A DNA stretch of 64,000 bases from the NCBI GenBank assembly GCA_963812135.1, contig CAWETU010000001.1, positions 2,240,001 to 2,304,000 on the forward strand, given 5' to 3'. This stretch comes from Vulcanimicrobiota bacterium. Its GTDB lineage: Bacteria; Vulcanimicrobiota; Vulcanimicrobiia; Eremiobacterales; Eremiobacteraceae. The notes under the pieces were generated by a model. That model was not told the origin of the DNA. It saw only the letters and a list, made by a program, of their open reading frames with translations, and did no database searches. Made by a program: the position numbers and the translations under genes. Shown here piece after piece: positions 16,796-22,488 of this stretch (positions within the stretch are counted from its first letter, which is position 1; every line of letters begins with the position of its first letter).

Positions 16796-16812
16796 GGGCG
16801 TCGAGAAAATGC

Positions 16813-16843
16813 GAGAGCCGGCTGCGTGATGCAGCCGGCTCTC
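16813..16843. terminator. 13-bp perfect hairpin, probable bidirectional terminator
   Basis: GAGAGCCGGCTGC-gtgat-GCAGCCGGCTCTC between convergent ORFs. Confidence 0.75.
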
Positions 16844-16869
16844 AAGTATTTTATGTATGGATTACGTGG

Positions 16870-17019
16870 TTAGGGAAGCGCGTTGATCTCCGGTCGCTCG
16901 AAGACAAGCTTGGTCATCGAGACGATCGCGATGTAGTACGCGTGCATTTCGGCCCGCGTGAGCCGCTGCGTCGCGGCCGTTTGGCGTAGGTTCCCTTGGG
17001 TCAGGATCTGCTTTTTCAT
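16870..17019 (-). CDS. Small protein, 49 aa (MKKQILTQGNLRQTAATQRLTRAEMHAYYIAIVSMTKLVFERPEINALP)
   Basis: GGAGGTGG RBS, downstream terminator hairpin. Confidence 0.6.
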   Translation of the reverse strand: MKKQILTQGNLRQTAATQRLTRAEMHAYYIAIVSMTKLVFERPEINALP

Positions 17020-17117
17020 TGCCGCCACCTCCGTGGCCGTCATACTCTATATCGGTAAAACTAAGCGAGCAAGCACAACGTTACGGCTGCGCTGATGAAA
17101 GCCGCATTAGAGTCAGG

Positions 17118-17174
17118 AAAAAGAAAGAACCAGCGCTTTTACGCTGGTTCTGGTGCGGGTGCAGACCTGTCACT
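17118..17174 (-). ncRNA. Antisense sRNA, locus 1 (complementary to the tRNA-like RNA)
   Basis: TATAAT at 17179-17184; 24-nt complement of 17293-17316; GAACCAGCG/CGCTGGTTC stem plus U-tract. Confidence 0.7.
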
Positions 17175-17258
17175 TATGATTATACCGTCTCCTTCGTAGA
17201 GGATCGCAAGGGGCCGGCGTCAGACCTGTGCCGCCGCCCCCTTCCGCATAGCGGAGGC

Positions 17259-17326
17259 TGGAGGCGTCGGGAATCGAACCCGAATGCACGACGTGACAGG
17301 TCCGCACCCGCACCAGCGGCGCCCCC
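17259..17326 (-). ncRNA. 68-nt compact tRNA-like RNA (Ala acceptor stem, GUC anticodon), locus 1
   Basis: GGGGGCG/CGCCTCC-A acceptor, CCGC-TGGT-GCGG D arm, CTGTCAC loop, TCGGG-TTCGATT-CCCGA T arm; TTGACG-18-TATCTA upstream. Confidence 0.75.
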
Positions 17327-17443
17327 AACCGCGTTAGATATCACGACGGCACCCGCAACGTCAAGAAGCGTGGCGGATCTGGCGACTCGCGTTTTCATTT
17401 TGCTTTCACGCGAAGGCTGGCTTGGGTTGCTATCCTTGGTGCT

Positions 17444-19301: not shown

Positions 19302-19771
19302 TTAGAGTGTTGGCAGCAGTTCCGCGAGACGTCGAGCTGCTGGTTCCAGCCCTCGCTCATCCCTTCGAGCATGTAGGCCGCTTCCGGCGCAGCCTTGACC
19401 GGGGTTGCCTGCATCGAAATCTTGGTCTTACCGTTTTGATCGGTGAACGTGACGGTGCTGAGCACTTCGAGCACGACGTTGCCCTTGTCGTCCTCGACGA
19501 AGTGGGTCATGACGAGCCGTTCAGGCTCGACGACTTCGTGATACACGCCGTGCATCGGATAGATCGTGCCTTCGGGACCCCGCATGTGGATGCGAAGCTT
19601 GCCGCCCTTGCGCGCATCCGACTCGACGAGCGGCGCCGTGAAATGCTTGGGACCCCACCAGCGCGTCATCATCTTCGGATCGGTCCATGCTTTGAACACG
19701 AGACTGCGCGGCGCGTCGAACACGCGCGTGATCGTCAAGGTTGCCGCGGCCGGGCTATTTTTTGCGTCCAC
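19302..19771 (-). CDS. SRPBCC (AHSA1-like) domain protein (1-nt indel near the 3' end)
   Basis: TRVFDAPRSLVFKAWTDP, WWGP, GW...LD; restoring the frame gives LDRLAELLPTL*. Confidence 0.85.
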
Positions 19772-20105
19772 GTTTCTTCTCTTTCCCCTGGAGCTCGATG
19801 AGGTAATCGTCGAGTCTCTCGAAGCTTTGGTCCCAAAAACGCCGATAGCGCTCCATCCACTGCGCCACTTCTTTCAGCGGCGCGGCATCGAGCTTGCGAG
19901 GGCGCCGCTGCGCATCGCGGCTACGGGTGACGAGGCCGGCGCGCTCCAGCACCTTGAGGTGCTTGGAAATGGCCGGCAGCGTCATGTCGAATGGTCGCGC
20001 CAACTCGGTCACCGATCGTTGACCCGAGGCGAGCCGCGCGAGGATGGCGCGCCGGGTGGGGTCGGCGAGCGCCGCAAGGGTGTTGCTGAGGCGGTCGGCT
20101 GTCAT
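19755..20105 (-). CDS. ArsR/SmtB family transcriptional regulator
   Basis: ALADPTRRAIL..L, ISKHLKVLERAGLV. Confidence 0.93.
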   Translation of the reverse strand: MTADRLSNTLAALADPTRRAILARLASGQRSVTELARPFDMTLPAISKHLKVLERAGLVTRSRDAQRRPRKLDAAPLKEVAQWMERYRRFWDQSFERLDDYLIELQGKEKKRGRKK

Positions 20106-20120
20106 TTCCTCTGTCTTTAT

Positions 20121-20152
20121 GAACCTGTTGGTTATGTAACCTTTTGGTATAT
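20121..20152. promoter_or_regulatory. Putative ArsR operator (tandem AACC-N4-GGT(T/A) dyads)
   Basis: GAACCTGTTGGTTATGTAACCTTTTGGTAT just upstream of arsR. Confidence 0.55.
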
Positions 20153-20237
20153 TACACCTGGACGATCGGGCTGTCAAGCGCGGAAGCCCCAAAATTGTGA
20201 CGGCTGTCCAGCCGGCTATTTGGGTATTATCCGTACG

Positions 20238-20732
20238 ATGAAATCCACGCGTCTTTTCTTGCCCGTCGTGCTGCTGCTGCTCATCGCGTCGCCTGCCGTC
20301 GCCGACCTCGGTATGGATCTGCGCTGCAAGACTGCGGGGACTTCGATGCAGGCGTTGACCAAGCAGTGCGGGGTCGCGGGCGGGACGATCGCGGGCGCTG
20401 ATGCCCGGCTGTGCGTCGAGGCGCATGCGTCTGAGCTTGCACAAACAGCGTCGGTGTGCGTCTACGCGGCGCAAAATCACTATGCCGCGGCCCACGATCT
20501 TTCGGGCTACGATGCGGATCGCGAGCTCATCGGCGGCGCGACGTTCTTGGGCATCGCCGCAGAGGCCAACGTCTACCTCGAGCGGCGCGACCTCGCAACC
20601 GCGCAGCTTAAGTCTGTCATCACAATGGCGACGCAAGTGGCGTCCGATCCCCTTGCCGCCAACCTCACAGGCATGGCGTATAGCGAGCAGGCGGTCGCAA
20701 ATAGCTTGTTGCATTCGCTTGCCGCGAGATAA
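20238..20732 (+). CDS. Secreted hypothetical protein
   Basis: MKSTRLFLPVVLLLLIASPAVA signal peptide, 4 Cys. Confidence 0.7.
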   Translation: MKSTRLFLPVVLLLLIASPAVADLGMDLRCKTAGTSMQALTKQCGVAGGTIAGADARLCVEAHASELAQTASVCVYAAQNHYAAAHDLSGYDADRELIGGATFLGIAAEANVYLERRDLATAQLKSVITMATQVASDPLAANLTGMAYSEQAVANSLLHSLAAR

Positions 20733-20762: not shown

Positions 20763-20819
20763 GAAAACAGGTCGACCGCGCCTTTCAGCGCGGTCGATTG
20801 CTAACACTGGACCGTCACC
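20763..20819 (-). ncRNA. Antisense sRNA, locus 2
   Basis: TTGCAG-17-TATAAT promoter (20847-20852/20824-20829); 13-nt exact complement of 20943-20955, extendable with G.U pairs; 10-bp terminator stem. Confidence 0.72.
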
Positions 20820-20906
20820 TTAAATTATACCGATTCCTGAAGCGAGCTGCAAGTGGGCAGCGTCTGGTCCGTGGTCGCTGCCCGCTCTCCGCTTTGTATC
20901 GGAGGC

Positions 20907-20974
20907 TGGAGGCAGCGGGACTCGAACCCGCGACACGCGGCTTGACGGTCCAGTGCCGGCACCTGCCCACCCCC
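20907..20974 (-). ncRNA. 68-nt compact tRNA-like RNA (Ala acceptor stem, GUC anticodon), locus 2
   Basis: GGGGGTG/TGCCTCC-A, GGC-AGGT-GCC, CC-GTC-AA loop, GCGGG-TTCGAGT-CCCGC. Confidence 0.75.
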
Positions 20975-21026
20975 AACCAACCGCCCCTATCACTGAAAGC
21001 GCTCTGGCCGTAAAGGTCTTGGGGCG

Positions 21027-22488
21027 TTAGGGCAGGTCGACGATATCGCGGACGACCTCGTCCTCGGCGTCGAAAAACGGCCCGGGGTCGCCGGTCGCGT
21101 CGCCCACCATGACGGCGAAGATGACGCGCCCGTGGTGCAAGGTGTCGGCATAGCCGGTGAGGACGATCGCGTGCTGCATGTAGCCGGACTTGCCGTGCAC
21201 GCGGCCGACCGCATCGGTACCAACCAGCCGACCCGCCAACGTGCCGTCCATGCCGGCCCGCGGCAGCGCGTCGATGAAGTCGTTGCCGTACGAACGTTTG
21301 GCCGTCGAGCGTAGAATGACGACGAGCGTGCGCGGCGTGATGCGATCGGCAGCGCACAAGCCCGAGCCGTCTTGAGCATCGAGCGAGTCCTTGTCGATGC
21401 CGAGCTCTTGCACGGCAAAACGCTGCTCGACCGTCGCGCCGCCGATGAAATTGCCGCGTTGGGATAGCTTGCGCACCGCGAGCATCTTGAGGATGTGCTC
21501 CGCGATGAAGTTATCGCTTTTGGGCAGCATGGTGCGCAGGATGTCGATAAGCGGCGGCGAGTCATGGATCCATACGAGCGTCCCGGTCGCGATCTGTGCT
21601 TTCGGGAGCGGGGTATCATCGATGACGTCAAGCGGCACGTTCGGCGGCGGCGGCCCGGCAGCGACAGTGCCGACGCGGATGCCCGCCGCGACGAGGACGC
21701 TGCGTAGCGTCTTGACCGCGAAATCGGCCGTATCTTCGACCGCGCAGTGCAGCGTGTCTTCCGAAGAGCCGACCGGCATGCGACCAACGATAAGTATTTG
21801 CGTCGTGCCGAGACGGCGCGAACACCGCGCCGGGTCTTCGTATGGTCCCGAGCCCATGGTGGCGCGCGACGCGATGGTGTAGCCGGCGCTCGGACTGAGC
21901 AGTCTTGCGGATACAAGGTCGCCGCTGCGCGCGCCGGGGCTGATGACGACGCCGACCGTGCCTTCGTCGACGGCGAGCGCTTGGATGGGCGCTTGATAAT
22001 AGAACGGGGTGCCATCCCAGGCCCAATCCGGGCCCCAGCGGCGTTGGTCGAACAGCGTCGTGTCGGCAAGCACCGTGCCGCTCACCTCGCGGATCCCCGC
22101 GCGCGTGACGGCCGCAGCGGCGTCGACGAGATCGTTGGACGTCAGCATCGGATCGCCGCCGCCGACCAGGATGAGGTCGCCGTGCAGCACGCCATTGTCG
22201 ATGGTGCCGCGCGCGCGCAGCGACGTCGTGAATCGGAACTGCGGACCGAGGACGTCGAGCGCCGTCGCGGAGAGCAGGACTTTGAAGCTCGACGCGGGCG
22301 TGAAGGTGTGGTCGGCCTGATACGAGGCGAGCACGTGGCCGGTTGCCGCTTCGAGCGCGAACACGCCGAGTTGTGCGTGATTCATCGGGGCACGACGCGC
22401 GATGGACTCGACGGTAGCCTGCAGCGAATCTGCGCGCACGCCGACCGGCGCGAGGAACGCGCCAGAAGACCAGCGCCGCGAGCGCCAT
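21027..22488 (-). CDS. dacB: D-alanyl-D-alanine carboxypeptidase/endopeptidase (PBP4, S13); frameshift in the signal region
   Basis: PASSFK, GGGDP, SDN, DGSGL, KSG motifs. Confidence 0.92.

Follow-up and report, generated by a model that had tools for sequence, protein, structure and literature searches.

A tRNA-like RNA with an alanine-type acceptor end and a predicted cognate antisense RNA: an apparently new gene module of Eremiobacteria

The minus strand of a 64,000-nucleotide stretch of the genome of a Vulcanimicrobiota bacterium (assembly GCA_963812135.1, contig CAWETU010000001.1, positions 2,240,001 to 2,304,000; 'the window' below) carries two copies of what appears to be a new and undescribed entity, a small two-RNA gene module of Eremiobacteria. 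Each copy contains a 68 nt tRNA-like domain (TLD), at 17259–17326 (locus 1) and, 3.6 kb away, at 20907–20974 (locus 2), followed by an internal promoter and a segment complementary to part of the same TLD. On balance we think it probable that the module is an RNA-only, two-gene system in which a tRNA mimic with alanine identity is controlled by a cognate antisense small RNA. The Eremiobacteria, formerly WPS-2, are an uncultured phylum abundant in soil and peat.

Results

The locus 1 cloverleaf and the layout of the module

The original prediction had divided the 68 nt of locus 1 into the arms of a cloverleaf, leaving the strand unstated, and its segmentation agrees letter for letter with the reverse complement of 17259–17326. 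Read on the minus strand, the TLD has a 7 bp acceptor stem (GGGGGCG/CGCCTCC) with G3.U70, a D arm (CCGC-TGGT-GCGG) with a 4 bp stem and a GG-containing TGGT loop, an anticodon-like loop (CTGTCAC) on an elongated, irregular arm and a canonical T arm (TCGGG-TTCGATT-CCCGA), with A as the discriminator and GCC, not CCA, as the next bases. The predicted cloverleaf is confirmed: it is the minimum-energy fold computed by ViennaRNA (−33.8 kcal/mol), and it is supported by covariation across homologues far above chance (see below). Both the 8/9 linker and the variable loop are missing and no CCA is encoded, as had been claimed. The anticodon stem, described as extended to about 8 bp, is indeed elongated but is not a clean helix of that length, since it consists of 4 bp, a 1x2 internal loop and a further 3 bp.

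The two window loci can be aligned over about 215 nt and share one order of parts: an upstream motif (P1), the TLD, a hairpin (H1), a GC-rich hairpin (H2), a promoter (P2), a segment c complementary to a segment a within the TLD, and an intrinsic terminator, the last being found at both loci. The features are as follows.

Locus 1, 17339–17364, minus strand: promoter-like motif P1, with TTGACG at 17359–17364, a 14 nt gap at 17345–17358 and GTGATA at 17339–17344; it ends 12 nt before G1 (17326)
Locus 1, 17259–17326, minus strand: TLD, defined by fold, covariance model and covariation
Locus 1, 17293–17316, minus strand: segment a, comprising the D arm and the 5′ strand and loop of the anticodon-like arm, the putative small-RNA target; a gapless 24 nt complement of 17150–17173 with one G.U
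Locus 1, 17240–17257, minus strand: hairpin H1, directly after A73, CCTCCGC-TAT-GCGGAAGG, with a bulged A
Locus 1, 17210–17240, minus strand: hairpin H2, with its loop at 17220–17230 (CACAGGTCTGA), which repeats the 5′ end of the predicted small RNA and is complementary to the TLD loop region
Locus 1, 17179–17209, minus strand: P2, internal sigma-70 promoter, with TTGCGA at 17204–17209, a 19 nt spacer and TATAAT at 17179–17184
Locus 1, 17118–17173, minus strand: predicted anti-TLD small RNA, with segment c at 17150–17173, terminator stem at 17126–17151 and T tract to 17118
Locus 2, 20764–21014, minus strand: whole module copy
Locus 2, 20988–21014, minus strand: P1, with TTTACG at 21009–21014, a 15 nt gap and GTGATA at 20988–20993
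Locus 2, 20907–20974, minus strand: TLD of 68 nt, with acceptor GGGGGTG/TGCCTCC including G3.U70, A73 and the loop CCGTCAA
Locus 2, 20885–20905, minus strand: hairpin H1
Locus 2, 20855–20883, minus strand: hairpin H2, with its loop at 20863–20873; complement to the TLD loop region interrupted, longest run 4 nt
Locus 2, 20824–20852, minus strand: P2, with TTGCAG at 20847–20852, a 17 nt spacer and TATAAT at 20824–20829
Locus 2, 20764–20817, minus strand: predicted anti-TLD small RNA, with segment c at 20805–20817, a 13 nt perfect complement of 20943–20955, and terminator stem at 20772–20797

Homologues and covariation

A pattern made from the T arm, the acceptor and the H1 junction matched 12 of 32 genomes of the window's family, and the reversed pattern, used as a control, matched none. 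Of the 18 units obtained, L019 and the second unit of L009 are degenerate in their 5′ halves. H1 is present in all window-family units, with compensating variants recognised by eye (for example CCCCGGG...CCCGGAGG), and H2 was seen in this family only. When a degenerate exact pattern was run over one genome per GTDB species, 108 loci were returned. Among these the full architecture was confined to records labelled Eremiobacterota or Vulcanimicrobiota, or to records coordinate-identical to family loci already found, and the other loci were mainly 3′ ends of Akkermansia tmRNA or tRNA-Ala genes together with chance matches. The same scan brought to light other Eremiobacteria that have the module in a simpler form.

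A covariance model (R1) was built from 21 TLDs, leaving aside the two degenerate units and one degenerate unit of the simple form, and was searched at E <= 1e-4 against 151 genomes drawn evenly from the phylum. It matched 38 of these, or 36 once false matches had been removed: two in a third family, which are ordinary tRNA-Asp genes at about 41 bits, and one in genome G002, an ordinary tRNA at 40 bits. All 36 positive genomes belong to two families of one class, namely the window's family (the source genome, G000, plus 3 of 8) and a sister family (32 of 71). The exact pattern fits only window-family trailers and was the sole probe applied to other phyla, where the sister-family form was therefore outside its reach; restriction to this class thus means that the module was not found elsewhere in what was searched. 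Within G000, R1 matches the two window loci only, locus 2 at 88.5 bits. Across the sample of 151 genomes there are one to five copies per positive genome, and relatives contain tandem arrays (four units about 310 nt apart in G098, three in G145). The presence of the module is patchy in both families (12/32 and 32/71 genomes). A scan of IMG/VR viral contigs with the exact pattern gave a single locus, which R1 did not match.

For the analysis of covariation, 54 TLDs from 45 loci were aligned after omission of duplicates, degenerate units and non-family loci. This alignment was fitted to the model, and so leans towards the model structure; in it 91.0% of cells are paired, as against 42–55% with slid structures, and 19 of the 23 pairs show compensatory changes, values that none of 500 shuffles reached. 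In an independent MAFFT alignment of 21 TLDs, 91.9% of cells are paired (41–54% when slid), 17 of 23 pairs have compensatory changes and again 0/500 shuffles match. The T loop is TTCGATT in 45/54 sequences and the D loop TGGT in 32/54, the D loop being only 4–5 nt long across the homologues. At the least, then, the TLD represents a well-supported new structured RNA family of 54 members with strong covariation, missing from Rfam.

Existing models recognise the TLD poorly. ARAGORN called 0 tRNA or tmRNA genes in the window, and no Rfam family matched there at its gathering threshold, nor did any at three further module loci. The best match of the locus 1 TLD in a permissive E-value scan, in which lower-scoring members of an Rfam clan, if any, are suppressed, was to tmRNA (RF00023), at 27.5 bits against a cut-off of 47; it involves only the two ends of the model, 326 internal positions being replaced by 31 nt. 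Permuted tmRNA (RF04321) matched at 29.3 bits (cut-off 47) through the T arm and a downstream GGGGGCG. For TLDs of the sister family the matches were likewise all weak: tRNA-Sec at 19–23.5 bits (cut-off 47) and mascRNA (RF01684) at 20–22 bits (cut-off 42.5). Neither around locus 1 (E up to 10) nor in one sister-family array (E up to 1) was there a match to the Y RNA YrlA or to other Rfam tRNA-like families. Measured against a canonical elongator tRNA, the TLD is passed over by gene finders and the tRNA model, lacks the linker, the variable loop and a 5 bp anticodon stem, does not keep U33 and has no conserved anticodon.

An invariant alanine acceptor end

Parts of one source (PMC9976931) give the bacterial alanine identity set as A73, G2-C71, G3.U70 and G4-C69, with no anticodon determinant, and that of AspRS as G34, U35, C36 and G73. 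All 54 TLDs have A73, where the AspRS set instead names G73, and all 54 have both G3.U70 and G2-C71; G1-C72 occurs in 53/54, and the 4:69 pair is G4-C69 in 48/54, with three G.U and two A-U. By contrast, acceptor pairs 5, 6 and 7 covary freely, both sides having changed in 17, 18 and 26 of the 54 sequences, respectively. The earlier claim of an alanine-type acceptor end therefore holds well beyond locus 1, with G3.U70 and A73 fixed throughout the family.

The source genome (2.79 Mb in 6 contigs, 64% G+C) contains 47 tRNA genes called by ARAGORN, including tRNA-Asp(GTC) and three tRNA-Ala, and a genuine tmRNA lies elsewhere in it (149.3 bits, tag ANSEYALAA). Since G000 has this separate tmRNA and full tRNA-Ala and tRNA-Asp sets, the TLD is an extra. 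The acceptor stem of locus 1 is identical to that of the tmRNA, and its loop CTGTCAC is the loop of the genome's own tRNA-Asp. Weak matches to the tmRNA model elsewhere in G000 are ordinary tRNAs, bar three: locus 1, its paralogue at 20907–20974 (minus strand) and a 3′ fragment of tRNA-Ala(CGC).

An encoded CCA follows the TLD in none of the 54 cases (next bases GCC in 40, ACC in 7, others in 7). This is not unusual in G000, where at most 20 of the 47 ARAGORN calls end in CCA, some of these being acceptor plus discriminator and not a tail, and where there is one gene for a CCA-type nucleotidyltransferase. The TLD may be processed, given a CCA tail and alanylated.

A variable anticodon-like loop

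The loop at the anticodon position is 7 nt long in 16/16 window-family units and 36/38 other units (52/54 in all), at the end of an arm of 4–5 bp, an internal loop and a further 3 bp (8–9 layers). Its central triplet is GTC in 13 of the 16 window-family units, with GTA, GAT and GCG once each; the 36 other units with 7 nt loops have GAT (23), GAC (5), GTC (3), TGA (2), GCG (1), GCC (1) and CAC (1). At position 33 the 52 loops have T (35), C (16) or G (1), and 50 of them have A at position 37. Because the triplet and position 33 vary, the loop is anticodon-loop-like yet not aspartate-specifying across the family. Furthermore, the loop and the 5′ strand of its arm are under another constraint, that of complementarity to the neighbouring small RNA.

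An internal promoter and a locus-specific complement

A promoter-like sequence within the module is nearly universal. In the window's family P2 occurs in 18/18 units as TTGCxx (TTGAAA in one), a 17 nt spacer (19 nt in locus 1) and TAnnnT. For the sister family we used 34 units, the 36 R1 matches minus the two weakest, and P2 is present in 32 of them as TTGxxx, a 16–18 nt spacer (17 nt in 28/32) and TAnnnT, with TGn before the −10 hexamer in 31/32. Overall, 50/52 units have P2, with spacing kept and spacer sequences unrelated. Complementarity to the TLD begins 5–8 nt past the −10 hexamer in 16/18 window-family units, which is where transcription should begin; a primary small RNA of about 50–60 nt, consisting of segment c, the terminator hairpin and the T tract, may thus be expected to start at this site.

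Segments a and c differ between the two window loci, yet each pair matches, over 24 nt with one G.U in locus 1 and over 13 nt perfectly in locus 2. The same holds more widely. Cognate duplexes in the window's family have a mean energy of −46.0 kcal/mol compared to −28.4 (sd 8.0) for non-cognate ones, and the cognate partner ranks first for 15 of 18 units, second for 2 and third for 1 (locus 2). In the sister family the corresponding means are −49.0 and −35.5 (sd 7.7) kcal/mol. The gapless matches of 12–24 nt contain 332 Watson-Crick pairs, 17 G.U/U.G pairs, one of them in a spurious match of the degenerate unit L019, and a single A.C, A.G and U.U each. DNA inverted repeats, or transcription of the opposite strand, would give A.C as often as G.U, so that the constraint is placed on RNA of this strand.

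Within G000 the two loci are orthogonal, with cognate energies of −55 and −38 kcal/mol against crossed energies of −28 and −25, and the best small-RNA partner among the 47 tRNAs and the tmRNA is in each case far weaker than the cognate TLD (−36.0 versus −55.5 and −26.1 versus −34.3). Heteroduplex formation is predicted by cofolding to gain −22.7 kcal/mol (locus 1) and −15.3 kcal/mol (locus 2) over the separate folds. Type I toxin-antitoxin systems have a cognate antisense RNA with some 18–24 nt of complementarity and its own promoter, and the module agrees with them in this respect.

A separate observation concerns the terminator of the small RNA in the sister family: its hairpin (GAGGCGCCGCAGTAATGCGGCGCCTC) is nearly identical across paralogues and genera while the targeting part is variable (e.g., L145, G098:C3:689502-690522). 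This conservation exceeds what a terminator needs, and could reflect a protein-binding site or gene conversion.

Genomic setting

Locus 1 is flanked by a 49-codon open reading frame (ORF; 16870–17019, minus strand), with a promoter-like site of its own, and by a phosphoesterase gene that is divergent. Locus 2 directly follows the stop codon of a D-Ala-D-Ala carboxypeptidase gene (21027–22439, minus strand). No Pfam-supported co-oriented gene was found past the locus 2 terminator: in the long minus-strand ORF there (19755–20714) the sole match is to an ArsR domain at the C terminus, and the plus-strand ORF that overlaps it (19566–20732) has no Pfam match. At 10 sister-family loci (L138, L140, L145, L146, L147, L150, L153, L155, L158 and L163) a unit, or an array of 2–4 modules, stands tail-to-tail with a convergent rlmN gene. 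This was the one usable cluster in a clustering of neighbouring six-frame ORFs, which was otherwise dominated by spurious GC-rich ORFs overlapping the units. No integrase, reverse transcriptase or conserved co-oriented protein gene was recognised beside the units, and the modules look like free-standing RNA genes at stable chromosomal sites.

RlmN is a methyltransferase of dual specificity, forming m2A both in 23S rRNA and at position 37 of tRNAs. A37 is kept in 50 of 52 TLD loops, although the adjacency to rlmN may be mere synteny.

The arrangement of the window loci brings to mind control of a downstream gene by the TLD through anti-termination, and segment c of the window's family does overlap the 5′ strand of the terminator. 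It fails as a general model: locus 2 has no supported co-oriented gene after it, the 10 sister-family loci face rlmN, and segment c of the sister family stops before the terminator stem.

Discussion

The explanation that we favour can be set out as follows. Gene 1 of the module of about 215 nt, under P1, would give a tRNA-like RNA with an acceptor stem and T arm of the tRNA-Ala/tmRNA type and a non-canonical lower half. Gene 2 would start about 85 nt downstream of the TLD (17259 to 17173 in locus 1), at a near-consensus sigma-70 promoter, and would yield a small RNA in which the 5′ 12–24 nt form a complement of the D arm, 5′ strand and 7 nt loop of the cognate TLD. This RNA could nucleate with its free 5′ end on the exposed TLD loop, zip through the anticodon-like arm and the D arm, and unfold the cloverleaf, and such pairing would titrate the TLD, inactivate it or mark it for duplex cleavage. 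An unpaired TLD would otherwise present its alanine-identity acceptor end to AlaRS, the CCA-adding enzyme, EF-Tu and RNase P. In the window's family there may be a further layer. The H2 region has 6–11 contiguous bases complementary to the TLD loop region in 13/16 units (9 nt in locus 1), and the H2 loop, in which the 5′-terminal sequence of the small RNA recurs, may cover the TLD loop in cis through an intramolecular loop-loop contact.

As to what the TLD might do, possible roles are as a decoy (as the original prediction had also suggested) or competitor for tRNA-handling proteins, in ribosome interference, in regulated mistranslation or in alanine donation. One particular route, non-ribosomal use of Ala-tRNA by a FemAB or LPG_synthase_C enzyme, was set aside, neither domain being found in G000; other transferases are possible. 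We regard it as conceivable, if not likely, that the module is an RNA-only toxin-antitoxin-like or regulated-mistranslation system, in which the freed, Ala-charged TLD would enter the ribosome and perturb translation, with the small RNA as its locus-specific antidote. The anticodon-like loop might be the means of entry, in which case alanine would be placed at Asp codons in the window's family and at Ile or Val codons in its sister; alternatively, the TLD might occupy the A site as a tag-less ligand in the manner of tmRNA. An antidote role for the small RNA would explain why the modules are orthogonal, multi-copy, tandem and patchy.

A number of observations weigh against control of an alanine-type tRNA mimic by a separate antisense RNA, or against parts of that proposal. 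P1 is conserved to a degree, with G[TG]GA at −25 to −10 in 49 of the 54 units and TTG at −50 to −30 in 38, but its −10 part is not a canonical TAnnnT, and P1 is thus a putative promoter. There is no terminator between the TLD and P2, so that segment c should be present in cis on P1 transcripts as well. Only 17/32 sister-family units have the cognate partner in first place, many of the others being orthologues that share sequence. The H2 pairing discriminates cognates weakly (mean 7.9 versus 6.6 nt), and in locus 2 its run of matches is broken. Pairing is also possible between A73-R74-C75 and the G-Y-T that precedes G1, which would lengthen the acceptor helix to 10 bp (17327–17329 with 17256–17258 in locus 1): in the 54 TLDs −1:73 is U-A in 51, −2:74 is paired in 50 and −3:75 is G-C in 50 and G.U in 2, while 0/47 tRNAs of G000 have all three pairs, with the caveat that register assignment is imperfect. 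By our reckoning the covariation at −2:74 is not significant, since both sides are conserved, and transcription might simply start at the G at −3. Should these pairs form, they may slow maturation of the RNase P type, or the RNA may not be trimmed to a tRNA-like end at all. Finally, G000 has no RNase Z equivalog above its cut-off, no second AlaRS and no second SmpB (there is one of each), and no FemAB or LPG_synthase_C (aminoacyl-lipid synthase) domain, these being the two families tested.

The absence of a terminator before P2 fits a single long structured RNA made from P1, in which a and c pair in cis, either as a switch between cloverleaf and long helix or as a substrate for duplex processing, with P2 merely adding 3′ copies. 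Indeed, the minimum-energy fold of the full 211–213 nt module uses the long a:c helix. It would be hard to explain on this basis, if a separate small RNA had no role, why P2 is kept in 50/52 units with the complementarity starting at the expected +1, and the cloverleaf pairs that the long helix would break are those that covary strongly. We therefore consider a purely cis-acting RNA unlikely.

The original prediction suggested that the TLD could insert alanine at the aspartate codons GAC and GAU. In the fullest form of that proposal it is a working tRNA which, after trimming and CCA addition, is charged with alanine and deliberately mistranslates these codons, the small RNA possibly being a safety lock. 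The fixed alanine set, the 7 nt loop in 52/54 units, the prevalence of G at the first anticodon position, the retention of A37 (50/52) and the identity of the locus 1 loop with that of the tRNA-Asp of G000 are all in its favour, and AlaRS makes no use of the anticodon, as parts of PMC9976931 state. However, the triplet differs among lineages and paralogues (GTC, GAT, GAC, GTA, GCG, TGA, CAC), position 33 is C in 16/52, the arm has 8–9 layers with an internal loop, there is neither 8/9 linker nor variable loop, the D loop has only 4–5 nt, and neither ARAGORN nor the Rfam tRNA model accepts the RNA. Moreover, pairing with the small RNA already accounts for the loop sequence. Asp decoding is thus not supported; the TLD is probably not an aspartate-reading tRNA, and programmed mistranslation of this kind seems to us quite unlikely.

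The relationship could also be inverted, with the small RNA as an effector on other transcripts and the TLD as a stable sponge or decoy. RNAs of tRNA shape are stable, and a/c pairing titrates either partner equally. On the other hand, segments a and c diverge jointly and freely from locus to locus, which speaks against targets elsewhere; stability alone would not need invariant G3.U70, G2-C71 and A73; and the conserved sequence of the sister-family small RNA, judged by eye, is mostly either TLD-complementary or terminator. We find this decidedly improbable. A decayed or split tmRNA, whether a pseudogene, an integration-site remnant or a two-piece (permuted) molecule, has in its favour the sub-threshold Rfam matches (27.5 and 29.3 bits) and the acceptor stem shared with the tmRNA of G000, but is already contradicted, and highly improbable, given the genuine tmRNA elsewhere, the lack of a tag frame and pseudoknots in the TLD, the downstream GGGGGCG of locus 1 that has no counterpart in locus 2, the purifying and compensatory selection on 54 copies, which are thus not remnants, and the absence of an integrase beside either locus. 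A tag peptide encoded downstream, as in two-piece tmRNA, was looked for by eye and rejected, there being no stop-terminated frame common to loci 1 and 2; in the sister family the 'TAA' of the terminator loop varies (AGTAAT, AGCAAT, AGAAAT).

An alanine-identity mimic with a cognate antisense RNA has likenesses to several known systems and matches none of them. With tmRNA (RF00023) it shares an acceptor with G3.U70, the discriminator A and the T arm GGGTTCGATTCCC. The TLD differs in having no mRNA-like domain, tag frame or pseudoknots, in possessing real D and anticodon-like arms, and in occurring in several copies per genome with a dedicated antisense RNA. In tmRNA the place of these arms is occupied by SmpB. 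According to parts of PMC3985003 and PMC3929946, RNase P processes tmRNA, which is alanylated and to which EF-Tu binds. As parts of PMC9976931 and PMC11392972 report, minihelices with the alanine set are charged by AlaRS, and the TLD has the full A73, G2-C71, G3.U70, G4-C69 set of such minihelices, of tRNA-Ala and of tRNAs that mistranslate since AlaRS disregards the anticodon. Compared with tRNA-Ala and the mistranslating tRNAs, it goes undetected as a tRNA, has a non-canonical core and a variable anticodon, and comes with an antisense gene.

In their genetic arrangement the modules are closest to small antisense-regulated loci. Ldr/Rdl and Ibs/Sib are tandemly repeated type I toxin-antitoxin loci. 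With these and with CreT/CreA the modules have in common that they are short, multi-copy or tandem, and patchy in close relatives, with a cognate antisense RNA from a strong promoter and co-varying specificity. They differ from type I systems in that the two RNAs lie in tandem on the same strand, and are neither overlapping nor divergent. Inspection of the alignments by eye revealed no conserved start codon or toxin frame in the TLD region, which is under RNA-structure covariation. CreT/CreA is described in parts of PMC8501985 as an RNA-toxin module; unlike the small RNA here, CreA works via Cascade and not by pairing with the toxin RNA. The modules differ from T-box-like leaders, and from leaders resembling small transcription-activating RNAs, in the lack of a supported co-oriented gene past the locus 2 terminator and in the 10 sister loci that face rlmN. 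The bacterial Y RNA YrlA is a tRNA-like small RNA. It has in common with mascRNA, with the tRNA-Other of Bacillus cereus and with the TLD a cloverleaf-like shape with a tRNA elbow, and the three do not decode, as the TLD probably does not either. Unlike the TLD, none of YrlA, mascRNA and tRNA-Other is known to combine a fixed alanine set with a neighbouring cognate antisense RNA. For tRNA-Other, parts of PMC3399842 describe a non-translating pseudo-tRNA. We found in the literature no account of a tRNA-like RNA that has a dedicated antisense RNA encoded next to it, nor of such an RNA in Eremiobacterota, subscription journals lying outside the full-text search.

If our explanation is correct, Eremiobacteria have a family of RNAs, distinct from the products of normal tRNA and tmRNA genes, in which the alanine acceptor identity is complete and each of which is wired to its own programmable antisense RNA. 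This would be a new way for cells to use or police tRNA mimicry, and the modules would constitute natural sets of orthogonal RNA-RNA pairs. It would also become directly testable, as has long been asked, whether bacteria can deploy Ala-charged non-canonical tRNAs for regulated mistranslation, ribosome interference or non-ribosomal alanine transfer.

Additional observations

In the window, about 100 nt past the locus 1 terminator together with the start of the 49-codon ORF (MKKQILTQGN...; 16870–17110, minus strand) are almost identical in a 2.8 kb contig assigned to another genus (L015), which points either to an unusually conserved leader and small gene or to a mis-binned contig. Between the DUF2079 gene and this small ORF lies a perfect 14 bp hairpin (16812–16844) that could act as a terminator on both strands. 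It has a sub-threshold match to Rfam ctRNA_pGA1 (28.9 bits against 45), which most likely reflects shape only.

Outside the window, many Akkermansia metagenome-assembled genomes (L026–L104) have tmRNA and tRNA-Ala genes without an encoded CCA, directly followed by a terminator-like hairpin, GCCTCCG-T6-CGGAG. In G000, a second copy of the 3′ part of tRNA-Ala(CGC), about 46 nt long and with CCA at its end, lies 6.8 kb downstream of the complete gene (G000:C1:150957-157797; L002, L005). The copy at G000:C1:157764-157797 looks like an attachment-site duplicate and is unrelated to the module; a repeated 3′ fragment of this type is the usual signature of an element integrated into a tRNA gene.

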